The translations under genes were made by a program, and so were the position numbers. The notes beneath the pieces were generated by a model. It was not told where the DNA came from and ran no database searches. It was given only the letters and a program-made list of their open reading frames with translations. Shown here piece after piece: positions 8,452 through 32,573 of a stretch of 64,000 bases of DNA; the first letter of the stretch is position 1, and each line of letters opens with the position of its first letter. The DNA comes from an uncultured Candidatus Binatia bacterium (lineage in GTDB: Bacteria; Desulfobacterota; Binatia; UBA9968; JAJDTQ01): positions 352,001 to 416,000 of the forward strand of contig OZ251459.1 in assembly GCA_965242525.1 (NCBI GenBank), read 5' to 3'.

Positions 8452-8900
8452 GGGTTCCGGTCTCCTACCCACGCCACCAGGACCGCATCCGGCTCGTCCG
8501 CCAGCGATGCTTCCCGTCCCGACGGGTTCTCCAGCAGGGCGACGGCGAGGAGGGCCGGGGTCCGGGTCTCCGTCGCCATGCCCTGCCACAAGCCGACGCC
8601 GCCCAGCAACGCCGCCACCAGCGCGAAGGCGGGAGCGAGCCGGCGGCTGAACAGCAGCAGGGCGTCGCTGAGGGATGCGCGCCGGTCCTCTTCTTCGCGG
8701 ATCCGGGCGGCGACCCCGGGCCACGCGGGCCGTCCGGGGGTCGGCTCCGGCGCCGCGGAAAAGAACCGCCGCCAGAGCCGTTCGTCTTCGAGCAGCCCGG
8801 AACAGTCCGCGCACGACCGGGAGTGTTCCCGGTGCGCGTCGGGGAGCGGCTCCGTCAGCCTTGCCGTCTCCAGCCGGCGTCTGAAATCGTCACAGGTCAC
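8448..8900 (-). CDS. Zinc-binding anti-sigma factor (ZAS-type)
   Basis: N-terminal MTC...HxxxCxxC (HSRSCADC) and a single TM helix; directly downstream of the ECF sigma. Confidence 0.75.
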   Translation of the reverse strand: MTCDDFRRRLETARLTEPLPDAHREHSRSCADCSGLLEDERLWRRFFSAAPEPTPGRPAWPGVAARIREEEDRRASLSDALLLFSRRLAPAFALVAALLGGVGLWQGMATETRTPALLAVALLENPSGREASLADEPDAVLVAWVGDRNP

Positions 8901-19376: not shown

Positions 19377-21596
19377 TCAAGGGAGCCGCCCGGGCCGGCC
19401 CACCGGCAATTCTACTTCCCAGCCGCGGCGTCCTTTCCAGTCGGGGAGCCGGTATGGCTGCTGTCCCGTCCTGACGCTGGAGACGGGATAATCGGGAAGT
19501 GGAAGGACGGCCATGCACTTCCCCTCGAACAGCACGCCGCTTTGTTGGAAGAGGATGTAAAGCTCTTCGGATCCGTGCCGCCGGCGCTCTTCGGGAAGGT
19601 CCTTCGGGTCTTCCGGGACCACCTCCACGAAGGCCGTCAATCCCACGTCTTCCCGGACGCAGGGATCCTTGACGTGGAAGATGGCGTCCTCACCGAGATG
19701 GACGTCGAAGTGGGAGCGCGCCGCAGGTTCTCCGGACGCCACCCGTTGGTGCGTGGCCCGGTAGAACGCCACCAAGTCGTCGATACCGGCCGAACCATAC
19801 AGGAATACCCGTTGGTTGCCGGGCGTGAGCAGGGCGCTGCTCTCCACGCGGTCGCGGGTGACGAGGAAGTCCGCGGCGCGGGCGGCGGCTTCCATGTCCG
19901 GGAAGTGCGTCAACGCGCTTCCGGCGGGGTGGTATCTCATGGCGCCTTGCGTGTGGAGGGAGTACGCCAGGACGCTTCCTGCGAGGTAGTACCTCCATTT
20001 GTACTGCTGCTGTGTGACCTGCCAGGACCATTCCGGCTCGACGGACCCGAGGACCAGGACCGCCTTTCCCCGGGTGGTTTCGCGGATGGCCCCGAGTTCG
20101 GCCATGGCGGTTCGCTGGATCTCTGCCACCCGGGCGTCGGGGCGCCACCGTCGTTCCGTCCCGAAGGCGGAGACCACGAAGGCGAGCAGGGCCGCAACCG
20201 CAAGGCCGACCACCGGACCGCGCCCCCAGCGCCGGTGGACGTACAGCAGGAGCAGTGAGTACAGCACCAGCGGCGCGCCCACGTAGTACATGGCCTCGTG
20301 AGGGTGGTAGGCAACGTTGTGGCGCATGAGCAGGGCCCAGCAGAACCCGGACAGGGCAAGGGTGCCCAGCAGCATGCGGCGCCGCCCTGCCAACAGCGGC
20401 TTCGCAAGCCGAACCGCGGCCGCGGATGCGGCCACCGCCGCCAGCAACGACAGGAGGTAAACCGACAACTCCGGCCCCGAAAGGCCGGACGCCGAAAAGG
20501 GAACCGGCGGGAGCCACCCCCGCAAACCGGCGCCCCAGTCGGTCAGCACCCATGGAACGGACGCCACGCGGACACGATGGAACTGCTGTCGCAGGAAGCG
20601 CAGCCACCACCTGGAGTGGAAGGGGGCGTCCAGGTCCTGGCCCACGCCGGTGGTCCGCCTGAGCATGGCCCCGAAGGACGGCAGTTCCGTCACCGGGGTC
20701 TCGCCTCCGAACGCGGCGTACTCGTTGGCGAAGTTGAATCCCAGGACGGCCGCGCCGAACAGCAGCGCGGCCAGGCCAAGGGCCATGTAGCGGCTGCGCA
20801 GCACCGCCGCCCCGGCAGAGCGCGCACGCGGCCACAGCGCCGTCTCGTCCTTCCACGCCCGAACCGCCTCGCTACCCAGGCCCAGGAGGAGGAACGGCAG
20901 CAGGAACGCATACACGTGCCAGCCCAGCAGCAGCGCAACGCAGGTCCTGGCCAGCAACTGCCGGAACCGTCCCTCCTGCACGAACACCACCATGCCGTGG
21001 AAGGCCAGCATGACCGCGAACAGGTCCACGCTGTACTCCACGCAAACCCTGTTGCCGAACGACAGCATGTAGTAGGAGGAGAACGCCATGAGGGTGGCGG
21101 CCAGCGCGACCCAGCGGCGGGAGGTGATGCGGGCGAGGGAGTGGAAGGCCAGGAGCGCAGCACCGCTGAACAGGAGCAACATGAGCATTCGGGCGGCGAG
21201 GATCCTGGCGGACAGGTCGTTTCCGAATGGGAGGATGGCGAGTTTGATGAGCGCGTAACCGCCCACGGGAAAGCGGCCGTACAGTTCGTAGGCGGGGGCG
21301 CCGCCCGGTCCCGGGCGCAGTCCCGGCGACAACCGGAAACGGTGGTGGGGCGACAGGTTCTCGGCGATGGCCAGGGTCTTCCCCGTGTTCCAGGTAGGGT
21401 GCTCCGAACGGTAGAAGTACCCCTTGTCCACGTTGCACAGGAACAACGTGGACAGTGCGAGCAGCAGCAACCACAGGGTGAGGCGTTCCGGCCGGCCCCC
21501 CGGGGAGGATGAGGCGGGCTTCACGAATGGTCCGTCTCCGTCTTCCAGATCGACGGCTTCCTTGTCGGGCGGTGGATCCGGGATGGCGCGCGTCAT
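19377..21596 (-). CDS. Multi-pass membrane protein (GT-C-like?) with C-terminal soluble domain; paralog 3 of 3
   Basis: Inverted near-identical copy of 15877-18051; ATGA overlap with the upstream sulfotransferase-like gene. Confidence 0.75.
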   Translation of the reverse strand: MTRAIPDPPPDKEAVDLEDGDGPFVKPASSSPGGRPERLTLWLLLLALSTLFLCNVDKGYFYRSEHPTWNTGKTLAIAENLSPHHRFRLSPGLRPGPGGAPAYELYGRFPVGGYALIKLAILPFGNDLSARILAARMLMLLLFSGAALLAFHSLARITSRRWVALAATLMAFSSYYMLSFGNRVCVEYSVDLFAVMLAFHGMVVFVQEGRFRQLLARTCVALLLGWHVYAFLLPFLLLGLGSEAVRAWKDETALWPRARSAGAAVLRSRYMALGLAALLFGAAVLGFNFANEYAAFGGETPVTELPSFGAMLRRTTGVGQDLDAPFHSRWWLRFLRQQFHRVRVASVPWVLTDWGAGLRGWLPPVPFSASGLSGPELSVYLLSLLAAVAASAAAVRLAKPLLAGRRRMLLGTLALSGFCWALLMRHNVAYHPHEAMYYVGAPLVLYSLLLLYVHRRWGRGPVVGLAVAALLAFVVSAFGTERRWRPDARVAEIQRTAMAELGAIRETTRGKAVLVLGSVEPEWSWQVTQQQYKWRYYLAGSVLAYSLHTQGAMRYHPAGSALTHFPDMEAAARAADFLVTRDRVESSALLTPGNQRVFLYGSAGIDDLVAFYRATHQRVASGEPAARSHFDVHLGEDAIFHVKDPCVREDVGLTAFVEVVPEDPKDLPEERRRHGSEELYILFQQSGVLFEGKCMAVLPLPDYPVSSVRTGQQPYRLPDWKGRRGWEVELPVGRPGRLP

Positions 21597-23026
21597 CGTT
21601 CGGCGGCGTAGCGGATTTCGTGGAGATAGCCCTTTGCCGCCCGGGTGGCCCGTTCCTCCGGAAACCGCTCCATGTGCGACATGTCGTGGAGAGAGCGGAA
21701 CACTGCCAGCACCGCGCCGTCGGCGATCCGAACCTCCGCGGCCTTGCTCTCCCGGGTAAACGTCACCAACGCCCTGCTGCGGTCCGGGGAAATGGCGACT
21801 CCGCCGCGATGGGTCGTGTACGGTTCCCGCAAATGGTCGGGAGTCCGGCGGTTCGGGAAGATCGTGGTCTCCTCGCCGCTCGCCGCGTCCACCATCAGCA
21901 GCCGTGACACGCCCAAGGCGCCGTCCGCGTTTCTGCCGCCCTGGTTGTCCAACAGGAGGAACCTGGACCCTTCCAGATGCAGGACGGAGTGCTGCATCAT
22001 GAACCCGCCGCGCACCATGCGCTTCAAGCGTTGGGTTTCGGGGTCCAGTATGGCGAACGCGCTCAGATGCTTGATGGACACCGCGAGGTCTCCGGGTTCG
22101 AGGCCCGGGCCCGCTGCGTCTTCTCCCAGCAGGTGGACGGAATTGACATGCGTCGGGTCACAACGATCCATGTGGAGCAAAAGCGAGCCATAGGGGGACT
22201 CCAGCAAGGCGTCGAAGACGGAAACCTCCCTCAGCAGCCTCCCCGCAGGGTCGATTGCGTTCACGATGTCGTGATACCAGTGCGGACAAGACATCACGAG
22301 TCGGAGGTTGTCCCGTCCCGATACGAGCGGGAGATCCCTGGGCCTGCCGCGCCGCATGCCCGGAACCAGGACTACTCCGCCATCGGTCAGGTGCGGTCGA
22401 TGGTGGCCGTAGTCCGGACGGTACCACACCGGCTTGCCGCTCCGGTCGATGCGCGCCGTCCCGCCGCCGTAAGGGTGGGTATGATCGAAAGCGAAGACCG
22501 CCAGAAGGTCCCCGTTGGCGTATTTCGATACTCCCGTTATGCGCGTATGGTCGAGGAAGGAGAACCCGAGTGCGTGCTCGTAAGGGAAATCCCCGGTGAA
22601 CTCCTCCTTCTCCAGCCATTCCGCCAATTCCCCGGGGCGGTACGGCCAGGCATGACGGACTTCGCCCCGGCCGGCGTACTCCACCGCAATACAGCCCGCG
22701 TGCTCCGGACAGTGCTCCCGGAAGAGACCCCACCCTCCCGGAACCAGTATCGGGTCGGCCAGGCTGTCGCTGCCGATGAACTCGAAACGCCGGGCCGCCG
22801 CCTGCTCGGGCGGGACGTCCACGAACATCCTTCGTCTGTAGGAAGGTTCCCGCAGCTTGATCTCCACCAGCTCGACGAAGGTTTTCTCCGCGGAAGACAG
22901 GATGGCGTCGGGGAAGACCTCGTACAGCGCGACGTACCGCCCGCCTGCGAAGGCCGCCAGCATGAGCGCCGCCACGAACAGGAGCGCCGGCGCCCTTCTC
23001 CGCAACGCTGGAGCCGCTCCATGCAT
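21593..23026 (-). CDS. Arylsulfotransferase (ASST)-family beta-propeller protein
   Basis: N-terminal TM helix; HH, DPTHVNSV, QHS..and LDN motifs. Start uncertain. Confidence 0.7.
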   Translation of the reverse strand: MHGAAPALRRRAPALLFVAALMLAAFAGGRYVALYEVFPDAILSSAEKTFVELVEIKLREPSYRRRMFVDVPPEQAAARRFEFIGSDSLADPILVPGGWGLFREHCPEHAGCIAVEYAGRGEVRHAWPYRPGELAEWLEKEEFTGDFPYEHALGFSFLDHTRITGVSKYANGDLLAVFAFDHTHPYGGGTARIDRSGKPVWYRPDYGHHRPHLTDGGVVLVPGMRRGRPRDLPLVSGRDNLRLVMSCPHWYHDIVNAIDPAGRLLREVSVFDALLESPYGSLLLHMDRCDPTHVNSVHLLGEDAAGPGLEPGDLAVSIKHLSAFAILDPETQRLKRMVRGGFMMQHSVLHLEGSRFLLLDNQGGRNADGALGVSRLLMVDAASGEETTIFPNRRTPDHLREPYTTHRGGVAISPDRSRALVTFTRESKAAEVRIADGAVLAVFRSLHDMSHMERFPEERATRAAKGYLHEIRYAAER

Positions 23027-23262
23027 GCGGCTCAAAATAACACGGCGAAAGTCCGTGTGGAACTGCCTGGCCCCCCGTTGGCGACGGTTCTTCCCCCTTG
23101 CGCCACCGTCCCGGCCCGCCTCCCCGCGGACCGAAGCGAGACCCCCTCTCGATCGGGCGCCGGCTCCGGGAAGGGCCGGTTTGCCCAACCGTCCTGCACT
23201 GTCTATGATAGGGGCCTGCGCGGCCGCGCAGGACCGCAGGACACACGAGAGGAGACCTCCCC

Positions 23263-24123
23263 ATGCCCAGACCGCGACCCATCCAGTGGCCGGACGGCGC
23301 AAAGATATGCGTCACCTTCATCATTCCCTGGGAGGTGTGGCCGGACAACTACGCCACCCGGGGCTCGCTCCAGCGGGTCAGCCACCCCCTGCCGCCGGAG
23401 AACGCCGTGTTCAAGCAGAACATGGCCGCGGTCACCGAGCGCGAGTACGGCGACCGGGTGGGCATCTGGCGCATCATGGACATGTTCCAGCGGCACGGCC
23501 TCAAGGCCACGTTCCTGATGAACGGCAAGAAGGTGGAGCAGTTCCCGGACGAGGTCAGGGAGTTCCAGGCCCAGGGCCACGAGTTCTCCTCCGAGTGCTA
23601 CGAGCACGAGTACGCTTTCATGTACACCCGGGAGGAAGAACGGAAGTCGATCCGGGACACGGTGGCCGCCTTCGAGAAGGTCCTGGGCGCGCCGCCCACG
23701 GGCTACCTGTCGCCCGGCCACGCCTCCACCGACAACACCCTGGACCTGGTGGCCGAGGCGGGGTTCGTGTGGTGGGCCGACCCGCTCAACTCGGACGTCC
23801 CCTACACGCTGGAGGCCCGGGGCCGCAAGGTCGCGGTGGTGCCCTACAACGTGCCCGGCTGCAACGACTACTCCACCTACGGCGGCGGACGCACGCCGAG
23901 GGACCTGCTCCAGATCATGAAGGACCAGTTCGACTACCTCTACTGGGAAGGGGAGCAGGGGGCGCCCAAGTTCTTCGCGTTCAACCTCCATCCGTTCGTT
24001 TCCGGCGTGCCCTACCGGACGAAGGTCATCGACGAGTTCATCAAGTACGCCAAGGGCTTCCCCGATGTCTGGTTCGCCAGGCGGATCGAGATCGCCAACT
24101 GGGTCCTGGAGCAGGGATACTGA
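23263..24123 (+). CDS. Polysaccharide deacetylase family protein (PuuE/allantoinase-like)
   Basis: WPDGAK, EYGDRVGIWR, GHE, GYLSP, D.PY, ND and LHPF.SG.P.R motifs; GAGGAG RBS. Confidence 0.85.
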   Translation: MPRPRPIQWPDGAKICVTFIIPWEVWPDNYATRGSLQRVSHPLPPENAVFKQNMAAVTEREYGDRVGIWRIMDMFQRHGLKATFLMNGKKVEQFPDEVREFQAQGHEFSSECYEHEYAFMYTREEERKSIRDTVAAFEKVLGAPPTGYLSPGHASTDNTLDLVAEAGFVWWADPLNSDVPYTLEARGRKVAVVPYNVPGCNDYSTYGGGRTPRDLLQIMKDQFDYLYWEGEQGAPKFFAFNLHPFVSGVPYRTKVIDEFIKYAKGFPDVWFARRIEIANWVLEQGY

Positions 24124-24139: not shown

Positions 24140-24913
24140 CTACGGCGCGGCCCGCGGTCTCGCCCGGGGCGGGCCCGCGCTGCGGAGGTCGATGGTCTGC
24201 CCGCACAGGCCCCCGGCGAGGTCGCTGAGCAGGAAGGCGGCCACCGCGGCCACCCGGGGCGTTGCGGAAGGGGTCTCGCCCGCGGGGGCGGGGACGGTGT
24301 CCGGCCGGGTCTCGCCGCGGCTCCGGGGCGCGCCGGCCGCCGCGGCTCCGGCCGCCTGGGCCGGCAGCAGCACGTTCAGGGTAACGTTGTCCCCGGCCAC
24401 GCCCGCGGCCGCGGACTTGAGCCAGGCGGACAGGGCGGCGCCGGCCACGGAGTGGACCTGTCTTTCGGCGTCGGTCCCCGGGTCCGGCCACGGGATCATC
24501 CAGAGCACCCGGCCCCATCCCCGGCGCTGCATTCCGCGCACGAGGGTCTCGGTGGCCGCCCGGAAGCCGAGGAAGCCGGCGCCGAGCCGGGTTTCCCAGG
24601 ACGGCGTGCTCCCTTCCGGCGGGGCGGGAAGCCGGGCCACCCCGAACAGCAGGTCGATGTCGCCCAAGTCCTCGGTGATGCGGCTCACGAGGGCGACGGT
24701 GGAAGGCTCGTCCCAGCCTTCGATGCGGTAGCCCGCGGCGTTGACGCCGCTCCGCTCCACGTTCTCCGAAGCGACCCTTTGCGCCGCCCATCCCTTGCGG
24801 GCGCACACCGCCAGGTCGGCCCCCTCGGCCGCCAGGGCCCCGGCCACGGCCCGGCCGACGCCCCGGGAGCCGCCGAACACCAGCGCCCGCCTGCCTCGGA
24901 TGCCCAGGTCCAT
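24140..24913 (-). CDS. Atypical SDR-family oxidoreductase (no YxxxK)
   Basis: MDLGIRGRRALVFGGSRGVG, VTLNVLLP and AFLLSD motifs; no catalytic Tyr visible. Confidence 0.7.
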   Translation of the reverse strand: MDLGIRGRRALVFGGSRGVGRAVAGALAAEGADLAVCARKGWAAQRVASENVERSGVNAAGYRIEGWDEPSTVALVSRITEDLGDIDLLFGVARLPAPPEGSTPSWETRLGAGFLGFRAATETLVRGMQRRGWGRVLWMIPWPDPGTDAERQVHSVAGAALSAWLKSAAAGVAGDNVTLNVLLPAQAAGAAAAGAPRSRGETRPDTVPAPAGETPSATPRVAAVAAFLLSDLAGGLCGQTIDLRSAGPPRARPRAAP

Positions 24914-24919
24914 GGCGGT

Positions 24920-25894
24920 TCAGGAGCGCGCCTTCCGGTCCTCTCCGCCGCGCCGCGCCCGGAGCCGGATGGGGTGCTCCGGGTGCAGTGGCCGGAAGTC
25001 GGTCATGGAAAGCCAGACCCTCAGGAGATGCCGGCCGGGTCCCCGGTCGTCGGTGAACCCGGTGCGGGTGTGGAGGACCACGTGGTTGTTGAAGTACTCC
25101 ACGTCCCCGGGCTCCAGCTCCATGGACACCGACACCCGATCGGCCACGGCGTTGAAAGCCGCCAGCGCTTCGTTCTGCTCCGGGGTCAGTTCGGGGACCC
25201 CGGGCAGCGACTGTGCGCGCTTGATGTGGACCCGGTAGGCGCAGGCGTTGAAGACCCCGTCCCGGAAGTTCAGGAACGGCAGCCGGGTCCAGGGGTGTCC
25301 GTGGTCCGGGTGGGGATGTTGCAGGGCCATGTGGAAGGGTTGGGTCAGGGTCCGCAGCAGTCGGGGATGCTCCTCCCGCATGACGTTGTACACGGTGGCG
25401 GAGCTGGCGAACTTGCGCGTCCCGCCCGCGGACGCGGACCGTACGCACAGGAACCCGATGACGTCTTCCAAGTCGGCATGGAACGGAAGCTCGCCGGTGT
25501 TGCGAAAGCCGAACCTGCCCTGGGTCTCGGGCTGTGCGCGCACGTGGGCCAGGGTCACGCCGCCGGGCTGCTCCATGGGACGGCCGAGTTGGCGGCTCAA
25601 GGCCAGGAAGGCGTTGGCCGTGCCGTCCTTGCCCAACTCCTTGACCGGCAGGCCCCGGAGTATGCGGAAGCCGACTCCCGACTTGAGCTCGTGGAACGTC
25701 TTCCGTACCTGTGGGGCCAGGAGGGGGAGCGGCGGCGGCTCGTCCGCGCCCGGGGGTCTTCGGGCCGCGGCCAGCAGCTCCGCGGCCTCGCGGCCCGTGA
25801 GGTCGTGGCGCCACGTTTCCGAGCGGGCGAGGTCTTCCGGCGTCCATGCCGCCGGGTCCGTGGTCCTGGGATGGTCTTCCGCGAGTTGGCCCAT
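24920..25894 (-). CDS. TauD/TfdA-family Fe(II)/2-oxoglutarate dioxygenase
   Basis: HxD (FHADLED), distal His (NNHVVLHTRT) and RHLLRVWL; AAGGAGGG RBS before the ATG at 25894. Confidence 0.85.
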   Translation of the reverse strand: MGQLAEDHPRTTDPAAWTPEDLARSETWRHDLTGREAAELLAAARRPPGADEPPPLPLLAPQVRKTFHELKSGVGFRILRGLPVKELGKDGTANAFLALSRQLGRPMEQPGGVTLAHVRAQPETQGRFGFRNTGELPFHADLEDVIGFLCVRSASAGGTRKFASSATVYNVMREEHPRLLRTLTQPFHMALQHPHPDHGHPWTRLPFLNFRDGVFNACAYRVHIKRAQSLPGVPELTPEQNEALAAFNAVADRVSVSMELEPGDVEYFNNHVVLHTRTGFTDDRGPGRHLLRVWLSMTDFRPLHPEHPIRLRARRGGEDRKARS

Positions 25895-25920
25895 GAGCGT
25901 TCCCTCCTTGCGTGGCGGCG

Positions 25921-27267
25921 TCACCTTTCCCGGAAGGCGTCCTGGCGGTAGCCGCGCAGCGGTTGCAGGACGTACTCGATGACGCGTTGCTTCCCCAGTA
26001 TGACCGAGGCTTCCGCGGACATGCCGGGCAACAGATCGATCTTCCGGCCTTCGATCTCCATCCAGGTCTGGTCCAGGTCGATGAGCGCCCGGAACAGGGG
26101 GCCGGCCGTTTCCGCGCCGGACCCGGAAGAAGAGGACGGGTCCGATGCGGAGGCGCCCTGCGGGGACGTCCGGACGCCGTCCTGGAACCCGGCGTTCACC
26201 GCGTCCTTGCCCACGTGGCTGACCGCGCCTTCGATGGCCCCGTAACGGCGGAAGTCGAAGGTGGCGACCTTCAGGGCCACCCTCTGGCCGGGCTCCACGA
26301 AGCCGATGTCCGCGTTGGAGACGAATGCCTCCATTCGAATGCCCGCGTTCCGGGGCACGATCACCATGAGCCGGGCGCCGGGCTCCACCACGCCGTTCTC
26401 CGTGTGCACGGCCAGGTCCTGGACCACTCCGTCCACCGGCGACGCCAGGGTGTGCCGGCTCCGGTGCTCCCGGGCCTGGCGGATCTCCTGGCGCAGCACG
26501 ATCATCCTCTCCCGGACCGCGGCGAGGGCGGTGCGGCGTTCCCGGTAGAAGTCCGAGACCACTCCTTCCTTCTGCGCTTGCAGCGCGGCCAGGGAGGCCC
26601 TGGCCTGGGCCAGCTCCTCCTCCCGGAGCGCAAGGTCGCCCTGGACCTCCACCAGCCGCTCCTGCTCTTCGAGGAGGTCGAGCCGGGAGCCGTGGTCCTT
26701 GCGGAAGAGGACCTCGCGCATGCGCGTCCTCTCGCGCAGCAGGGGCAGCAGTCTCCGGTGCTTGGCAATGCCCGCCTCCAGGGTGCGGATGCGGGCGCGC
26801 CGTTCCCGGACCATGCCGTCCAGTTCGTGGAGGCGGGCGCGGTGGGCGGCGATCTGGTCCGCCAGCAGCCTCTCGTTGATGGCTGCGATCTCCGGCGGCG
26901 CGTCCGGGGGAGGCCGGAACGGCGCGCCCTTGCGCCAGTCCAGCAGCGCTTCCAGACGGGCCGCCTCCGCGGACTTGACGCCGAGTTCCGAGGTATGCTT
27001 CACGATGTCGGCGTCCACCAGTGTAGTGTCGAGCTCCACCAGCACTTGGCCCCGTTCCACCGCGCTCCCTTCCTCCACCGCGATCCGCCGGACCTTTCCG
27101 CGCTCGAAGGAGCGGATGGTCTTCACCTGCCCCCGCAGGACGATCCGTCCCGGGGCCACCGCGGCCAGCTCCACCTCGGCGATGGAGGCCCAGGCGAGGG
27201 TCGCCACCAGGAAGGCGCACAGGGCCGCCAGCAGGATGACGTGGGTGCGGAGGGGCGGCCTATCCAC
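25921..27267 (-). CDS. HlyD-family type I secretion membrane fusion protein
   Basis: N-terminal TM helix, lipoyl halves (V.EG..V..GQVL..LD and SPVDGVV), coiled coil, DIGFV..GQ, YGAIEG, PGM and R.VIEY.L.P. Confidence 0.9.
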   Translation of the reverse strand: MDRPPLRTHVILLAALCAFLVATLAWASIAEVELAAVAPGRIVLRGQVKTIRSFERGKVRRIAVEEGSAVERGQVLVELDTTLVDADIVKHTSELGVKSAEAARLEALLDWRKGAPFRPPPDAPPEIAAINERLLADQIAAHRARLHELDGMVRERRARIRTLEAGIAKHRRLLPLLRERTRMREVLFRKDHGSRLDLLEEQERLVEVQGDLALREEELAQARASLAALQAQKEGVVSDFYRERRTALAAVRERMIVLRQEIRQAREHRSRHTLASPVDGVVQDLAVHTENGVVEPGARLMVIVPRNAGIRMEAFVSNADIGFVEPGQRVALKVATFDFRRYGAIEGAVSHVGKDAVNAGFQDGVRTSPQGASASDPSSSSGSGAETAGPLFRALIDLDQTWMEIEGRKIDLLPGMSAEASVILGKQRVIEYVLQPLRGYRQDAFRER

Positions 27268-29074
27268 CTTGCGCCTCCCGCGGACTCCGGCGGGCCAGGG
27301 GGCTCACCCCGTCCCCGGGCCTTGCGCCCATCTCCCTGACCAGCGCCGACTCCTCGCGCACCATGGCGGCGAAATACCCGTTCCCCCGGGCCAGTTGCGC
27401 GGGGGTCCCCTGCTCCGCCACCTTGCCCTGCTCCAGGCAGACGATACGGTCCGCATGGCGCAGCGCGGACAACCTGTGTGCGATGACGACCACGGTCCGC
27501 CCTTGCGCGAACCGCCGCACGTTCTGCTGGATCCGGCCCTCGTCCTCTCCGTCCACCGAGCTCGTGGCTTCGTCCAGGATCAGCACGCTGCCGGAATGGT
27601 AGAGCGCCCGGGCCAACGCGATGCGCTGGCGCTCGCCGCCCGAGAGGACCGCGCCCCGGGCGCCGACCCGGGTGGCGTAGCCCCGGGGGGTCCGGGTGAC
27701 GAACTCGTGGGCGCACGCGGCCCGGGCCGCGGCGATGACCCGGGGCATGCGGCGCTCGCCCGGCCCCAGGGCGATGTTGTCGGCGATGCTGCGCCGGAAG
27801 ATGGGGTAGTCCTGCTCCACCGCGCCCATGTGGCTGCGCAGCCAGTCCGGGTCCAGGACCGCGGCGTCCGCGCCATCCAGGAGCACGCGCCCTCCGGTGG
27901 CCAGGTAGAGCCGCTGGATCAGGCGCGCCACCGTGCTCTTGCCCGATCCCGACGGACCCACGATGCCCAGGGTCTCGCCGGGCCCGACCTCGAAGGTCAC
28001 GCCCTCCAGGGCCTCCCGGTCCGCGTCCGGATAGCGGAAACGCACGTCCTCGAAACCGATGGCCCCCTTGAGGGACGGCAGTTTCACGAGGTGGCCGTCC
28101 TGCCGTTCGGTGGGCTCGTTCAGCACCGTCCCCACTTCCCGCACCAGCGCCCGGAGCCGGGTGAAGTCATAGACGAACGTGCACAGCCGCATCATGGGCT
28201 GGGAGAACCGCATGTTCACCAGGTTCACGGCCACGAGCTGCCCCAGGGTGAGCTGCCCGTCCAGCACCATGGAGGCGCCGAACCACAGCAGGCCCGCGGT
28301 GGCGAAGCGGTTCACGAACTGGTTGTACTGGTTCATGGAGTCGCGCAGGTCCTGGGTGTCCTCGTCCGACGACGCGGCCTCGCCCACCCGCCGGGTGAGG
28401 AAGGCTTCCTGGGCGGGTTCCTCGTGCATGCCCTTGACGGTCTCGATGCCGTTGAAGGTGTCGAGCACCGCCTCGTTGCCCTCCCGGCGGCTGTTCCTGG
28501 TCTTCCGGCTCCGCTGCTGGAGCGTGGGCATGACCAGGAAGGCGGGGGCCGCGTACAGGGGCAGGCAGGCCAGGACCACCAGGGCCAGGGTGAGGCTGAA
28601 GTGGAGCATCAGGACCAGGAAGACCAGCATGAAGAAGATATCGACGAACACGAACACCACCGCGTTGGTGAGGAAGCGGCGCAGGTGGCGGATCTCTTCG
28701 ATGCGGGAGAGGGTCTCCACCGGGGTGTTGCGCAGGTAGAAGGAGACGGGCAGCTCCAGCGAGTGGCGGATGAGGCGCGAGAGGAGCGAGCGGTCCATGT
28801 CGCGGACGGAGCGGCGCAGGACCCTGTGGCGGGCGGCGCGAAGGACCGCCTCGAAGGCCAGGAAGAAGAGCAGGCTCACGATGATGACGTCGAGGGTGGC
28901 GGCGCCCCGGTTGGACAGGACCTTGTCGATGATGATGAGGAAGGTGAAGGGGTAGATGTAGCCCAGCAGGTTGATGAAGAAGGACGCCGCCACCAACGGA
29001 CCGAAGACGGCCTTGTGGGTGAGCAGGTGCTCGGCGATGGAGCGGAGGGTGAACTCCTGGCGGTCCTCAGCCAT
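27260..29074 (-). CDS. Type I secretion ABC transporter (HlyB-like) lacking a C39/C39-like domain
   Basis: IIDKVL TM domain starts at about residue 25; Walker A GPSGSGKST, LSGGERQR, ILDEATS and IAHRLS motifs. Confidence 0.9.
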   Translation of the reverse strand: MAEDRQEFTLRSIAEHLLTHKAVFGPLVAASFFINLLGYIYPFTFLIIIDKVLSNRGAATLDVIIVSLLFFLAFEAVLRAARHRVLRRSVRDMDRSLLSRLIRHSLELPVSFYLRNTPVETLSRIEEIRHLRRFLTNAVVFVFVDIFFMLVFLVLMLHFSLTLALVVLACLPLYAAPAFLVMPTLQQRSRKTRNSRREGNEAVLDTFNGIETVKGMHEEPAQEAFLTRRVGEAASSDEDTQDLRDSMNQYNQFVNRFATAGLLWFGASMVLDGQLTLGQLVAVNLVNMRFSQPMMRLCTFVYDFTRLRALVREVGTVLNEPTERQDGHLVKLPSLKGAIGFEDVRFRYPDADREALEGVTFEVGPGETLGIVGPSGSGKSTVARLIQRLYLATGGRVLLDGADAAVLDPDWLRSHMGAVEQDYPIFRRSIADNIALGPGERRMPRVIAAARAACAHEFVTRTPRGYATRVGARGAVLSGGERQRIALARALYHSGSVLILDEATSSVDGEDEGRIQQNVRRFAQGRTVVVIAHRLSALRHADRIVCLEQGKVAEQGTPAQLARGNGYFAAMVREESALVREMGARPGDGVSPLARRSPREAQGG

Positions 29075-29897
29075 GGCTCTCTTCGCCGGGGTCGTTGCCC
29101 CACGCCAGCATCAGGCCTTGCGCCGTCAGGCGCCGGACCAGGGCGTCGCGGGCGACGCCGTCGGGCGCCGCGGTCTCCCCCGGGGCCGCACCGCGCCCCG
29201 GGGTCTCGCCATCTCCCTCCGCGGCCGGCTCGGTCCGGGACCATTCCGCGGCCTCTTCCAGCAGTGCGAATGCCTCCGGCGGAAGCTCCATGACCGCGGG
29301 CCGGCGCCGCCCGCGGGAAGCCAGGACGGCCAGGCGGAGCGGCCGCGGACGGACCTCCTCCCGGGACCGGCCGGGCTCGAACAGGGGTCGGACGTCGTGG
29401 CCGCAGCGCACCAGCACGGCGCAGGGGTGGGTGCGGCGCCAGCCATGGGAGGAGGGGCTCGGGCGCTGCGCCATCGCTTCGCGCTCCATGGCCGCGGGAC
29501 GGAACGTCCGCGCCCGGGCCAGGGCCAGCTCCACGGCCGCCACGTCCGCGGCCCACGCCGGCGTGGGCGGCCGGCCGGCCCATCGTTCCAGGAAATGGTC
29601 GAAGAAGCGCTTGGCGTCCGGGTAGCGCTCGTAGGACCTCGGCGGGCACGCGGCCGCGAAGTCCCGCATGACCTCGGAGAAGCGGTGGCCCAGCAGGTTC
29701 GCGGTCCGCTCGAAGGTCTGGCGGAGCTTCTTGGTCCGCTTGCCGTAGGAGAACTCCGCCTCCAGCCGGAGGCGCCGGACGTCCATGCCGTCCAGGTCCG
29801 GGTCCAGGGCCGCGGACCCGAGGCCTTCCGTCCCGAAGATGAACGCTTGGCTCGTCAGGTGGCGCAGCAGGTTGGTCTGTCTGTCAATCAGCCGCAT
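29067..29897 (-). CDS. DUF2063-like MNIO partner protein (putative RiPP-recognition/chaperone)
   Basis: L...FERT..LLG..F......F motif and 'DVAAVELA'; overlaps the DUF692 stop. Confidence 0.65.
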   Translation of the reverse strand: MRLIDRQTNLLRHLTSQAFIFGTEGLGSAALDPDLDGMDVRRLRLEAEFSYGKRTKKLRQTFERTANLLGHRFSEVMRDFAAACPPRSYERYPDAKRFFDHFLERWAGRPPTPAWAADVAAVELALARARTFRPAAMEREAMAQRPSPSSHGWRRTHPCAVLVRCGHDVRPLFEPGRSREEVRPRPLRLAVLASRGRRRPAVMELPPEAFALLEEAAEWSRTEPAAEGDGETPGRGAAPGETAAPDGVARDALVRRLTAQGLMLAWGNDPGEESHG

Positions 29898-30759
29898 GGG
29901 TCCCGGTCCTTTCCCTCAGTGAGGCGGCCCGCGCCGCCTGTGCGCGCAGGCGCGCCACGTCCGCCAGGAGTTCGTCCCCCTGCTCGTAGCCGTTGTCCCG
30001 TTCGAGGACCACCGTCTGCGGGCGTTGCCGCAGGAGCGCGTGCTCCAGCAGGTCCAGGGCCTCTTCCGGCACCGGGTGGCTGTGGTCGTCCGCGTGGAAG
30101 GGCGCGTCGAGGTAGGGCCGGTGGACCAGGGGCCCGCCCGCGGCGTGGACGTCGGTCACCACGTCCTCGGGCAGCTCGTCCAGGAACGCGCGGGGGTCGA
30201 AGCCGTGGTTCCGGGAGTTGACGTGCAGGTTCTCCACGTCCAGCAACATGCCCACTCCGGTCTCCCGGAACAGCAGGTTGAAGAACTCGGCGTCGCTCAT
30301 CTCCCCGTCCGGGAAGTCGAACACGTAGGAGATGTTCTCGATGGAGAACGGCACCGGCAGTCGGGCCTGGACCTGCCGGATCTTGGGGACCAGCAGGTCC
30401 GCCGCGGCCCGGTTCCTGGGCACGGGCAGCAGGTTGGCGATGTCGATGCCCGGCACCTTGGTCCACGCCAGGTGCTCGCTGTAGGACGGTGTCCGGAGGT
30501 CCTCGACGGCCTGCGCCACCCCGTCCAGGTAATCCTCGTCCAGGGGCGCGTCGGTGCCGATGGAAAGGCCCACTCCGTGCAGCGCCAGCGGTATCCTGTC
30601 CACCAGGTTGCGGATGGCGCTGCGGGCGTATTCGCCGCCCTTGATGTAGTGGTCCACCGTCACCTCCAGCACGTCGAAGCGGTGCAGGTTGGCCAGGGTC
30701 CACCGGGCGATGGGAACCCGGAACCCGATGCCGATCAGGGGGGATGTGGATGTGTTCAT
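29884..30759 (-). CDS. DUF692 / multinuclear non-heme iron-dependent oxidative enzyme (MNIO)
   Basis: GIGFR, LHGVGLSIG, SEHLAW, NLLP.P, IENI, LLDVEN, NHGFDP, H.AG, DDHSHPV and LERD metal-ligand motifs. Confidence 0.92.
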   Translation of the reverse strand: MNTSTSPLIGIGFRVPIARWTLANLHRFDVLEVTVDHYIKGGEYARSAIRNLVDRIPLALHGVGLSIGTDAPLDEDYLDGVAQAVEDLRTPSYSEHLAWTKVPGIDIANLLPVPRNRAAADLLVPKIRQVQARLPVPFSIENISYVFDFPDGEMSDAEFFNLLFRETGVGMLLDVENLHVNSRNHGFDPRAFLDELPEDVVTDVHAAGGPLVHRPYLDAPFHADDHSHPVPEEALDLLEHALLRQRPQTVVLERDNGYEQGDELLADVARLRAQAARAASLRERTGTHAAD

Positions 30760-30944
30760 GCAGTCTCCCTGCGCCCCGCGCGGGCGGAAGCTCCCGGACC
30801 ATCCGGGCGCCCGCGCCGGGCTTGCGCGCTCGCCGCCCCGGCCTCTCCGGGGCGCGTTGGCCCGCCCCGTCGTTCCCGCGAAAGCGGGAATCCCGCGGCG
30901 TTGGCTTCTACAGGGATATGATCGGACGGTTGGCCCGGAACTTT

Positions 30945-31056
30945 AGGAACCTCTGGACAATTCCGAAGCGAGGCGCCTCTCCCTATGGGAAAGCGCGTCC
31001 TTCGACTCCGCTTCGCTACGCTCAGGACGAACGGAGGCAATCGTTCAGAGTTTCCT
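30945..31056. mobile_element. MITE-like element
   Basis: Imperfect TIRs AGGAACCTCTGGACAA / TCGTTCAGAGTTTCCT around the palindromic repeat core. Confidence 0.7.
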
Positions 31057-31058
31057 TC

Positions 31059-31193
31059 AGGAACCTCTGGACAATCGAGACATCCGGGATGGATTCCCTC
31101 GCCCTGACCGCCCTGTCCCCGTTCGTCCTGAGCGTAGCGAAGCGGAGTCGAAGGACGGGACCTTGCCTCTGTCCCGGTTGTTCGGATGTTCCT
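31059..31193. mobile_element. MITE-like element (tandem with the previous copy)
   Basis: AGGAACCTCTGGACAATCGAGACA ... TGTCCCGGTTGTTCGGATGTTCCT; core at about 31119-31157. Confidence 0.7.
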
Positions 31194-31308
31194 TTGGCGT
31201 TCCCCGGCGATCCGTGCGCGGGAGGCGCGCACGGGACCGGGAGGGAAGGGGCGTCGGGGAGTCAGCCGCACCCTCTCCGGAAGGGGAGGGCGGGGCGGGG
31301 GATGCGGC

Positions 31309-32318
31309 TCAGCCCAGGTCCATGCCCACGACCCGTGCGGGGTTCCGGGTGCAGACGGTGTAGAGTTCGTCCCCGGTCAGGCCGAAGGCTTCCATGTAGC
31401 CCCGGATGAGGCGCATGGCTTCCACGGAGTCCGGGAACAGCGGCTCGCCGGCGTCGCTCGAAAGCGTGAAGTGCTCGACCCCCACCTCGCGGATGGTGTC
31501 GTACATGATCCGAGGGTCCACGCCCAGGAGCGGCGACAGCTCGTCGAAGGTGAAGTTGAACAGGACGTGGGCCTTGGAGAGCTCCTTCATCTGCGCCGGG
31601 GAGACGTCGAGGAAGGGACTGTAGGGATGGTCCACCACCAGCCGGCGGAGGCCGATGCGGTCCGCTTCCTCGGCGACCTTGAAGATCTCGTCGTGGGTCG
31701 GATGGCCGAAGAACAGCGCCGCGCCGCGCTCGGCGCACAGGCGGATGATGTCCCGCACCTCGGGTTTCAGTTCGCCGGACTCGTCGAGGTTGTAGTGCCC
31801 GTGCCGCAGGGCCTCTTCCCAGGAGAGGGGCCCCGTCCAGCCCTTGGCGTCCATGTCGCGCTCGATGAGCGCCCGGTGGCTTCCCACCTTGTGCATCGTG
31901 TTGGCATGGTTGAAGACCGGAAGCCACACGGCCACCACGCCTTCGTCGATGGCCTGCTCGGCCAGCGCGGCCGATACCGGCTCCTGCTGCCGGCCGCAGA
32001 CGAAGCCGCCGAAGCACCGCACCGGGGCAACGCCTTCCTCCCCGGCCCAGGCGTCGAGCCGCCCTTGCAGTTCACGACCGCCTGTCCGGCGTTCCCGACG
32101 ATGGACTTGAACAGTATGCCTTTCATCTCCGCCCGGGACGCCTTCTTCACCAGGTCCAGGGCGTCCTGCTGGCCCGCGTGGGCGTGGCAGTGGATGTCGA
32201 TGGCGTCCCTGACCTTGACATGGCCGGGATGGACCACTCCGGGCTTGTACTGGGTGCGCGCCGCATAGGAGGTGACGCACCGTTCCCGGGTCGGCGTCGA
32301 GACCGCGTGATCGCTCAT
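31309..32318 (-). pseudogene. DUF6282-like amidohydrolase-fold protein with a frameshift near 32077 (pseudogene or sequencing error)
   Basis: AAGGAGG plus ATG at 32318; N-terminus DAIDIHCHA...GILFKS in one frame; VWLP, FGH, VDHP, LSSDAG and NPA in another frame. Confidence 0.7.
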
Positions 32319-32442
32319 GGTTCGCCTCCTTTTGCTCCATCCGGCGCGCGTCCGCTCCCGTCCGCTCCGCGCATGGGCGGGAAGGGCGCGCACTCCGGGA
32401 GCTACGCTTCATGTTAGACCCTCGGAACGCGAAACGAAAGAG

Positions 32443-32573
32443 GGAACTTCTGATCAATCAGGGCAGGGGGCATGAGCGCGTCCTTCGACTTCGCTTCGCT
32501 ACGCTCAGGACGAACGGAGATAGGGTCAGGGTGAGGGAATCCATCCTGGATGTCTCGATTGTTCAGAGGTTCC
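32443..32573. mobile_element. MITE-like element (inverted relative to 31059-31193)
   Basis: GGAACTTCTGATCAA ... TTGTTCAGAGGTTCC with the repeat core. Confidence 0.7.

Follow-up and report, generated by a model that had tools for sequence, protein, structure and literature searches.

The multinuclear non-haem iron oxidative enzymes (MNIOs), which modify peptides, are a family of iron enzymes that is young and growing fast. A 2025 survey (PMC12452194) states that most of their precursors, and nearly all substrates studied, have Sec signal peptides, which also serve for their export, and that precursors without a signal go with partner proteins (PMEs) of type 2. The described systems closest to the one reported here are the 'captophorins', under which the main text of PMC13097082 places the bufferins together with oxazolin, fontiphorin and gonophorin (BufABC, HvfABC, FonABC, NgoABC); in that paper the preferred site of FonB is a Cys-Gly dyad, the modification made by MNIO-PME1 clusters is the 5-thiooxazole, and a mass loss of ~30 Da for seven sites and an absorbance maximum near 305 nm are reported. 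Further points of comparison are TglHI (3-thiaglutamate/pearlin) and MbnBC (methanobactin) and, for export, HlyB/HlyD type I secretion and the NHLP/double-glycine exporters. Here we analyse a six-gene operon in a 64,000-nt stretch of DNA (the window) from an uncultured Candidatus Binatia bacterium (assembly GCA_965242525.1, contig OZ251459.1, positions 352,001 to 416,000), in which MNIO and partner genes are followed by type I secretion genes, a dioxygenase gene and a gene for a protein like the short-chain dehydrogenases/reductases (SDRs). Judged from sequence, this operon is likely to be the enzyme-and-export half of a dispersed system resembling those of ribosomally synthesised peptides with post-translational modifications (RiPPs), acting on Cys-Gly repeat proteins, (CG)n, that are encoded elsewhere.

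Six intact, co-oriented minus-strand open reading frames (ORFs), established by ORF calling and coding phase, span window positions 24140-30759. The window has a G+C content of 68%, which crowds raw ORF lists, and genes were therefore picked by third-position G+C per phase; this value was 0.86-0.98 in the matching phase for all six genes. In operon order, the features are as follows.

30920-30946, minus strand: promoter-like motif CTAAAGTYC-N13-CGATY, 27 nt, 185 nt 5' of the MNIO start
29884-30759, minus strand: MNIO, 291 aa (PF05114)
29067-29897, minus strand: MNIO partner protein (PME), 276 aa (AlphaFold2 fold match to TglI/NGO1945/MbnC)
27260-29074, minus strand: HlyB-type type I secretion ATP-binding cassette (ABC) permease/ATPase, 604 aa (TIGR01846, ABC_membrane and ABC_tran)
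25921-27267, minus strand: HlyD-family type I secretion adaptor, 448 aa (TIGR01843, PF13437 (HlyD_3))
24920-25894, minus strand: TauD/TfdA-family Fe(II)/2-oxoglutarate dioxygenase, 324 aa (PF02668)
24140-24913, minus strand: SDR-fold protein without the catalytic Ser/Tyr/Lys (pseudo-SDR), 257 aa (adh_short)

The junctions, in order from the MNIO gene, measure -14, -8, -8, +26 and +6 nt, in agreement with the preliminary description of this DNA, which had six co-oriented genes overlapping or less than 30 bp apart. The end of the operon is set by a convergent polysaccharide deacetylase gene (23263-24123, plus strand). A precursor gene was sought in the 549-nt spacer 5' of the MNIO gene, where no credible ORF was found, only repeats of the repetitive extragenic palindromic (REP) type and non-coding frames. 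When the 5' spacer (30650-31400) was compared with Rfam at E<=1, no family matched, and so no known riboswitch or leader RNA was found.

The MNIO matched PF05114 over profile positions 2-260 of 263 (E 5e-74, 249.3 bits, cut-off 25), and the window's own genome (G000) encodes no other MNIO. Columns H61, E95, H96, E141, D174, E176, N177, H205, D224, H226 and E253 were invariant among 13 subfamily sequences, and the His, Asp and Glu columns we take to be the iron ligands, as in the MbnB and TglH structures. The dioxygenase matched PF02668 (E 3.5e-36, 125.9 bits, cut-off 27) and has the facial triad H139-A-D141 together with the distal His in NNHVVLH (residues 271/275); the presumed metal ligands of both oxygenases are intact, as first described. 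Among NCBIfam models, BufB (NF050167, 204.2 bits against a cut-off of 310) and HvfB (NF003818, 178.2 against 360) were nearest to the MNIO, while ApyH (100 bits), ChrH (50 bits) and MbnB (TIGR04159, 41.6 bits against 325) scored lower still; the protein thus falls under the cut-off of all five MNIO equivalogs. The closest solved structure was 3bww (E 1e-35), with TglH (8hci_D) at E 4e-18 and MbnB at E 5e-6.

Of the three family assignments made for the operon beforehand, PF05114 and TauD were confirmed by profile and DUF2063 was not: the second gene product scored 17.5 bits against a gathering score of 27.2, and the partners of relatives gave no match at all. Its assignment as an MNIO partner protein is by fold, because its AlphaFold2 model, with a predicted local distance difference test (pLDDT) score of 83.6, had as its top solved Foldseek matches TglI (8hi7_A, E 1e-4, template modelling score 0.57), NGO1945 (3dee, E 1e-3) and MbnC (7dz9_C). 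By the definition in the main text of PMC12452194 it is a type 2 PME. By model cut-offs, the gene set lies outside the bufferin, oxazolin, methanobactin, pearlin, chryseobasin and aminopyruvatide families, which bears out the original impression that it corresponds to no characterised MNIO cluster.

Tblastn and a six-frame motif scan of the genome showed that G000 encodes two (CG)n precursor proteins, both remote from the window.

G000 C1:3803940-3804230: precursor, 97 aa (15 Cys, 14 Cys-Gly dyads)
G000 C1:~1578933-1579505: precursor, 190 aa

Both have a leader of the form ..W.LD...DLDLE[IV]HG followed by 11-14 Cys-Gly dyads. Across the family (66-282 aa), an acidic leader precedes an alternating Cys-Gly core that often runs into Cys-Ser, then an Asp-rich tract and a variable C-terminal part; leader residues W17, L28, E29 and G32 were invariant in 19 precursor sequences, and relatives reach 17 uninterrupted Cys-Gly dyads. 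By inspection of the aligned sequences, the precursors have no Sec signal or hydrophobic N-terminus, and searches of Pfam and NCBIfam matched no family. Relatives are rare: a search of 5.8 billion proteins at E<=1e-3 yielded 35, each either unnamed or annotated 'hypothetical', and six having an NCBI source. The genomic background is low, since at least three consecutive dyads occur at only three places in the six frames of the 4.2 Mb; the third place (C1:511888) was rejected as a precursor, being a chance frame in an Arg/Pro-rich non-coding translation. The conserved short or Cys-rich ORF whose presence the preliminary description had proposed to look for therefore exists, as the (CG)n proteins, outside the window and not at the operon in G000. 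In a complex prediction of MNIO, PME and precursor residues 1-64, the control scored near the test, and the result weighs neither way on binding.

The link between these proteins and the operon came from related genomes. MNIO orthologs were present in 22 of 24 sampled same-genus genomes, some with 2-3 copies, and within the order in 26 of 123 genomes and one of 27 genera. Seventeen same-genus loci were retrieved, holding 17 MNIO copies; the operon keeps its place on the chromosome, with a DUF6282 gene on one side and deacetylase/SLT genes on the other. Nine copies have the order MNIO-PME-ABC-HlyD-TauD, with the SDR-like gene next in eight; seven have MNIO-PME-ABC without HlyD-TauD in cis, six of them keeping the SDR-like gene; the remaining MNIO copy is degenerate. 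The ABC gene is kept in 16 of the 17. All-against-all comparison of ORFs from 18 loci revealed no conserved small ORF 5' of the MNIO gene in the syntenic loci. Paralogous clusters of lower G+C in three genomes (L021/L022, L026 and L027) do have a (CG)n ORF upstream of the MNIO gene: in L026 and L027 it lies directly 5' and reads as a leader ..W.L...DDLDLEVHG followed by CGCGCGCG..., and in L021 a gene for an S9 peptidase stands between the precursor-type ORF and the MNIO gene. An upstream ORF in L019 (224 aa read) was excluded; it is similar to the acidic C-terminal stretch of the L021 precursor, lacks a Cys core and is probably a remnant.

Outside the genus, all four loci with an MNIO of at least 50% identity (L063, L087, L089 and L091) have an ORF with at least three consecutive dyads within 10 kb, as against neither of two distant MNIO loci. 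L063, from an alphaproteobacterial metagenome-assembled genome, has the order precursor, S9 peptidase, MNIO, PME, ABC (with a C39-like domain), HlyD and TauD, beside an integrase. The arrangement MNIO-PME-ABC(-HlyD-TauD)-SDR is thus kept across the genus (17 copies, 17 loci), and MNIO-PME-ABC-HlyD-TauD recurs in an alphaproteobacterium, which was the synteny to be looked for.

The dioxygenase gene gives a further connection. TauD orthologs number 33 copies in 27 of 28 genus genomes: 13 are in MNIO clusters, 10 lie 1.5-2.4 kb 3' of a precursor gene (in 10 genomes) and 10 are elsewhere. HlyD lies between the precursor gene and TauD in seven of seven loci examined, all three inspected copies from the 'elsewhere' group are HlyD-TauD pairs, and TauD adjoined HlyD in every locus checked for HlyD. 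HlyD-TauD is a separable module, which in 10 genomes follows the precursor gene instead. One genome of the genus (G013, 98% complete) has no MNIO, precursor, TauD or motif, each of which is present in 25-27 of the other 27; this co-absence is only supportive, as it concerns a single genome among related genomes. Genomic association shows that MNIO, partner, ABC, HlyD and TauD belong with the (CG)n proteins, and that these, the SDR-like protein and, in some copies, the S9 peptidase make up one genetic system. With synteny conserved and no characterised pathway matched, the early suggestion of a peptide modification-and-export pathway gains support.

The S9 (prolyl oligopeptidase family) peptidase gene is found in L019, L021, L026, L027 and L063, either between the precursor and MNIO genes or after the SDR gene, and its product is a candidate leader protease. 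The window cluster has no such gene, and G000 has only a 27%-identical homolog (C1:1199448-1200632). In L022 (G006:C1:3776000-3794000), 5' of a third MNIO copy, there is a long tandem array that reads 'PPNRVGRLRKRRGL' in one frame and 'AESSREAKEAAGAA' in another; it adjoins transposase-like sequence and a degenerate MNIO-PME-HlyD remnant.

A promoter-like motif, CTAAAGTYC-N12-14-CGATY, is shared by the scattered genes. It had one match in the window against none in 100 shuffles. G000 has four CT-prefixed copies: one ahead of the MNIO operon, one ahead of uvrB and one 70-80 nt before the ATG of each precursor gene. An nhmmer model built from 12 MNIO-upstream copies alone ranked the two precursor upstream regions third and sixth genome-wide in G000. 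Across the genus, 68 matches were found in 27 of 28 genomes (one match for the reversed control), of which 26 precede an MNIO gene, 25 a precursor gene and 17 lie elsewhere, including before three HlyD-TauD pairs. The strict regular expression missed 13 of 24 precursor upstream regions in the retrieved loci. The motif may represent the promoter class of an alternative sigma factor. The uvrB copy is at C1:1019153-1019179 (plus strand); 16 sites in other genus genomes (L174-L189) precede genes for small single-pass membrane proteins, a GIY-YIG protein, RadC and a prepilin peptidase, transposase-like genes, and genes for secreted proteins that begin with a lamin-tail-like 'FINEVHYDN'.

When metagenome contigs were scanned with the partner alignment, 136 relatives were found, of which 80 were kept. 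Seventy-six of the kept loci form a sister clade with MNIO-PME, and ABC, HlyD, TauD or SDR matches occurred in none of these 76. In a set of 20 loci, made up of those of at least 8 kb from the 76 plus L087 and L089, 15 have an upstream protein with ...FVLGWRLYPN..H.CGCGCGC. These precursors (L087, L089, L098-L173) are ~100-180 aa long, follow the pattern FVLGWRLYPN.DHP.W....H.CGCGCGC, often continue into a Lys/Arg-rich tail, and matched no Pfam or NCBIfam model. Their MNIOs are 50-63% and their PMEs 34-45% identical to those of the present system, with which they share a His-x-(Cys-Gly)n core and the lack of a signal peptide; they differ in having only 3-5 dyads, at or near the C-terminus, an unrelated leader, and no transporter, TauD or SDR genes. 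In a quick tree, the sister clade was monophyletic (Shimodaira-Hasegawa-like approximate likelihood ratio test 100), and the syntenic clusters with HlyD-TauD in cis grouped with a support of 88. Because the sister-clade precursors also carry it, the His-x-(Cys-Gly)n core is the common denominator of the whole MNIO clade. The sister clade has the look of a separate RiPP family that is not yet described.

The window ABC protein matched Pfam ABC_membrane and ABC_tran and contains Walker A, signature, Walker B and H-loop. Its best model was the HlyB model TIGR01846, to which it aligned at 534 bits over model positions 122-692, falling short of the cut-off (725.55) on account of the missing N-terminal part; since the alignment starts at position 122 and the 121 N-terminal positions are absent, it has no N-terminal C39-like domain. 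Eleven relatives' ABC proteins carry this extra domain of ~150 aa, which in the two checked scored 19.2 and 17.9 bits against Peptidase_C39 (cut-off 22) and is therefore sub-threshold and degenerate; the lineage of the window has cleanly lost it. The HlyD adaptor exceeded the cut-off of TIGR01843 (335.4 bits against 208.65). G000 has one gene for a TolC-like outer membrane efflux protein (C1:2906863-2908017), with two PF02321 repeats (111.7 and 101.7 bits), unlinked to the operon; it is a candidate outer-membrane partner of the ABC-HlyD pair.

The best PDB match of the dioxygenase was 7n7v, a 'Predicted hydroxylase' (E 6e-39), followed by FrbJ (5eqn, E 2e-20), with clavaminate synthase and AsnO also among the matches; a literature search for the code 7N7V found no paper. 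The SDR-like protein has the Gly-rich motif GGSRGVG at residues 14-20 and matched adh_short (E 8.7e-15, 55.2 bits). It had been called atypical, and rightly so: in alignment with FabG (2p68), the catalytic Ser is replaced by Pro or Trp, the Tyr by His and the Lys by Gly. Its 11 orthologs show 71% mean column identity, with the Lys absent from all 11 and the Tyr present in three. It is conserved yet probably not a classical dehydrogenase, and the reductase-like character first given to it is doubtful, given that the catalytic residues are absent.

Set beside the captophorins, the system agrees in having an MNIO gene followed by a partner gene, a Cys-rich substrate of ribosomal origin that can be a protein as well as a short peptide, a presumed Cys-Gly modification context, and BufB and HvfB as best models. 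It differs from them in several respects: the MNIO scores under both cut-offs; the partner lacks the DUF2063 signature, although its fold still matches 3dee; the precursors have no Sec signal, DUF2282, Buf_6/12Cys domain or EGKCG repeat, and contain up to 14-17 uninterrupted Cys-Gly dyads; there are no DoxX or sigma/anti-sigma genes; and type I ABC/HlyD, TauD and SDR-like genes are added, with the precursor genes scattered. TglHI and MbnBC resemble it in having a partner of the same fold, likewise without the DUF2063 signature, and precursors without signal peptides, but the MNIO similarity is much lower, export differs, and their substrates, a Cys that a PEARL enzyme adds at the C-terminus or the short MbnA, are unlike (CG)n. 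With HlyB/HlyD and the NHLP/double-glycine exporters it shares ABC membrane and ATPase domains, an HlyD protein over the cut-off and an outer-membrane factor encoded elsewhere, and with HlyB, in the relatives, a degenerate C39-like domain that the window ABC lacks altogether. Unlike the cargo of those exporters, its own is a predicted MNIO-modified Cys-Gly repeat protein without RTX repeats, and the leader ends in His-Gly, not Gly-Gly. With a signal-less precursor and a type 2 partner, the system follows the rule given in the main text of PMC12452194.

In our literature searches, no paper linked MNIO, DUF692 or MbnB to Cys-Gly repeats, to type I secretion or to TauD. In the main text of PMC12452194 the terms TauD, HlyD, 'ABC transporter' and dioxygenase are absent, as are TauD, 'secretion', dehydrogenase, CGCG and GCGC in that of PMC13097082. 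The former does describe an 'adjamnio-I' family of 100 signal-less sequences of 122-293 aa that contain 8-21 Cys and go with PME-type 2, which, compared by description, may overlap the (CG)n precursor family; against an overlap stands the finding of only 35 precursor relatives in the 5.8 billion proteins searched. The best reading of these comparisons is that the system would work most like the bufferin/oxazolin system, with a new type of substrate and a new export route.

In the mechanism we propose, the partner protein would bind the conserved leader and present the Cys-Gly core to the MNIO, which would oxidise each dyad Cys. The most likely product is a 5-thiooxazole, which BufB, HvfB and FonB form at Cys-Gly dyads. 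This chemistry is favoured by analogy, because BufB and HvfB are the best-scoring models, 3bww is the best solved relative and, in the main text of PMC13097082, the 5-thiooxazole-forming MNIO prefers Cys-Gly; we give it slightly less than an even chance. The TauD enzyme would hydroxylate a residue of the same substrate, for which the Asp-rich tract is a low-confidence guess. ABC-HlyD plus a TolC-like protein would then export the product in one step by way of its C-terminal part, replacing the Sec signal peptide, which fits the lack of a signal peptide in the precursors and the linkage of their genes to HlyD. The product would bind metal, copper by analogy, and all units would be co-transcribed from the common promoter-like motif. 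More tentatively, the outcome may be a secreted protein with an uninterrupted block of twelve or more heterocycle-Gly units (up to 14 here and 17 in relatives), every Cys converted by one MNIO, hydroxylated by TauD and exported by the type I route. With the same reserve, the resulting ribbon of poly-thiooxazole, or of another thiolate or heterocycle, could be a high-capacity extracellular metal-binding or redox polymer for which no counterpart is described, produced by dispersed and co-regulated genes in bacteria with DNA in sponge metagenomes, and the sister clade with its short H-x-CGCGCGC cores could be a second, wider undescribed RiPP family; we hold this whole reading possible but less likely than not.

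Several observations count against this proposal. All links between operon and precursors are genomic, the precursor genes of G000 lie more than 1 Mb from the operon, and seven of 17 clusters have no HlyD-TauD in cis. Only 25 of 53 precursor matches have the strict motif and 17 of its 68 copies precede unrelated genes (including uvrB, RadC and small membrane proteins), so that it may belong to a general class of promoters and mark no dedicated regulon. No role is assigned to the SDR-like protein, the window ABC is without the C39-like domain, and the precursors showed no RTX or other recognised signal for type I secretion. As to chemistry, it may differ from that of the captophorins, the MNIO being under the BufB and HvfB cut-offs, the partner without the DUF2063 signature, and 5-thiooxazole formation known from MNIO-PME1 pairs only.

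The last of these points leads to the alternative that survives best, which we nevertheless regard as unlikely: the substrates and export are as proposed, the Cys chemistry is another (oxazolone/thioamide, beta-carbon excision, cross-links or a new one), and the product is no copper binder, being for example a redox-active or structural polymer. The BufB and HvfB scores (204 and 178 bits), far over those of ApyH (100), ChrH (50) and MbnB (42), speak against it, as does the much closer match to 3bww (E 1e-35) than to TglH 8hci_D (E 4e-18), and the Cys-Gly dyad is the context that a 5-thiooxazole-forming MNIO prefers in the main text of PMC13097082. Set against these are the sub-threshold position of the MNIO for five NCBIfam equivalogs, a partner whose best structural match, TglI, serves an enzyme of quite different chemistry, TauD and SDR-like proteins that are foreign to bufferin clusters, and a G-C-G core context without the Lys of EGKCG; small MNIO groups, moreover, probably install diverse modifications, according to the main text of PMC12452194.

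That ABC/HlyD serves self-protection, efflux or another cargo, with the modified protein staying in the cell, is improbable. It would account for the ABC without its substrate-binding C39-like domain, for the seven clusters with ABC and no HlyD in cis and for precursors that showed neither a classical type I signal nor RTX repeats; HlyD, however, stands immediately 3' of the precursor gene in all seven loci examined, ABC is kept in 16 of 17 genus clusters (all but the one degenerate copy), and a Sec signal is missing from the precursors, although according to PMC12452194 every relative studied acts outside the cytoplasm. Least probable of all is that MNIO-PME acts on another substrate and that the (CG)n proteins bind metal unmodified, in the manner of metallothioneins, sharing no more than regulation and neighbourhood with the cluster. 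In its favour, Cys-rich repeats can bind metals unmodified, the precursor genes lie apart from the MNIO gene in G000 and most genus genomes, and the motif also precedes unrelated genes. Against it, the adjacency recurs in independent lineages with different leaders and C-termini and the same H-x-CGCGCG core, no other conserved Cys-containing ORF accompanies the MNIO, and the conserved leader (W17, L28, E29, G32) is as expected for partner recognition.

Around the operon, REP-like inverted repeats of the type CCGTTCGTCCTGAGCGTAGCGAAGCGGAGTCGAAGGA (translating as 'FVLSVAKRSRRT') fill the flanking spacers (window ~30975-31165 and 32458-32544), and the same type occurs 5' of the 190-aa precursor gene (L032 ~8600-8800), where it abuts the promoter-like motif. 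The DUF6282 gene just 5' of the operon (31309-32393, minus strand) is split over two reading frames by a frameshift or assembly error; frame A (31309-32100) covers profile positions 48-194 and frame B (31767-32393) positions 1-44, with the HxH-like 'DIHCHAHAG', and orthologs in other genomes align across residues 6-263 of frame A. Beyond the deacetylase gene, at 19377-23302 (minus strand), lies a 739-aa ORF that matched no Pfam family, reads strongly as coding and shows positive AT skew; after it comes a 569-aa protein that weakly matched the arylsulfotransferase (ASST) beta-propeller (30.5 bits). Ten public sequencing runs contain at least half of the sampled words of window 24140-31000, with no RNA run among those listed, and five of them, from two studies, are labelled 'sponge metagenome', a hint of habitat.

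If the proposed system is as we read it, a near-pure Cys-Gly repeat substrate would be a natural test of MNIO processivity, and the MNIO family would be extended by one-step type I secretion in place of Sec and by a second iron oxygenase acting on the same substrate. Scattered genes linked by a motif are invisible to neighbourhood-based mining, whether of the RODEO type or by 'ORF preceding the MNIO'. Should the product be a multi-site thiolate-heterocycle metal binder, it would bear on metal handling in host-associated uncultured bacteria and would offer a compact, genetically encoded metal-binding polymer.

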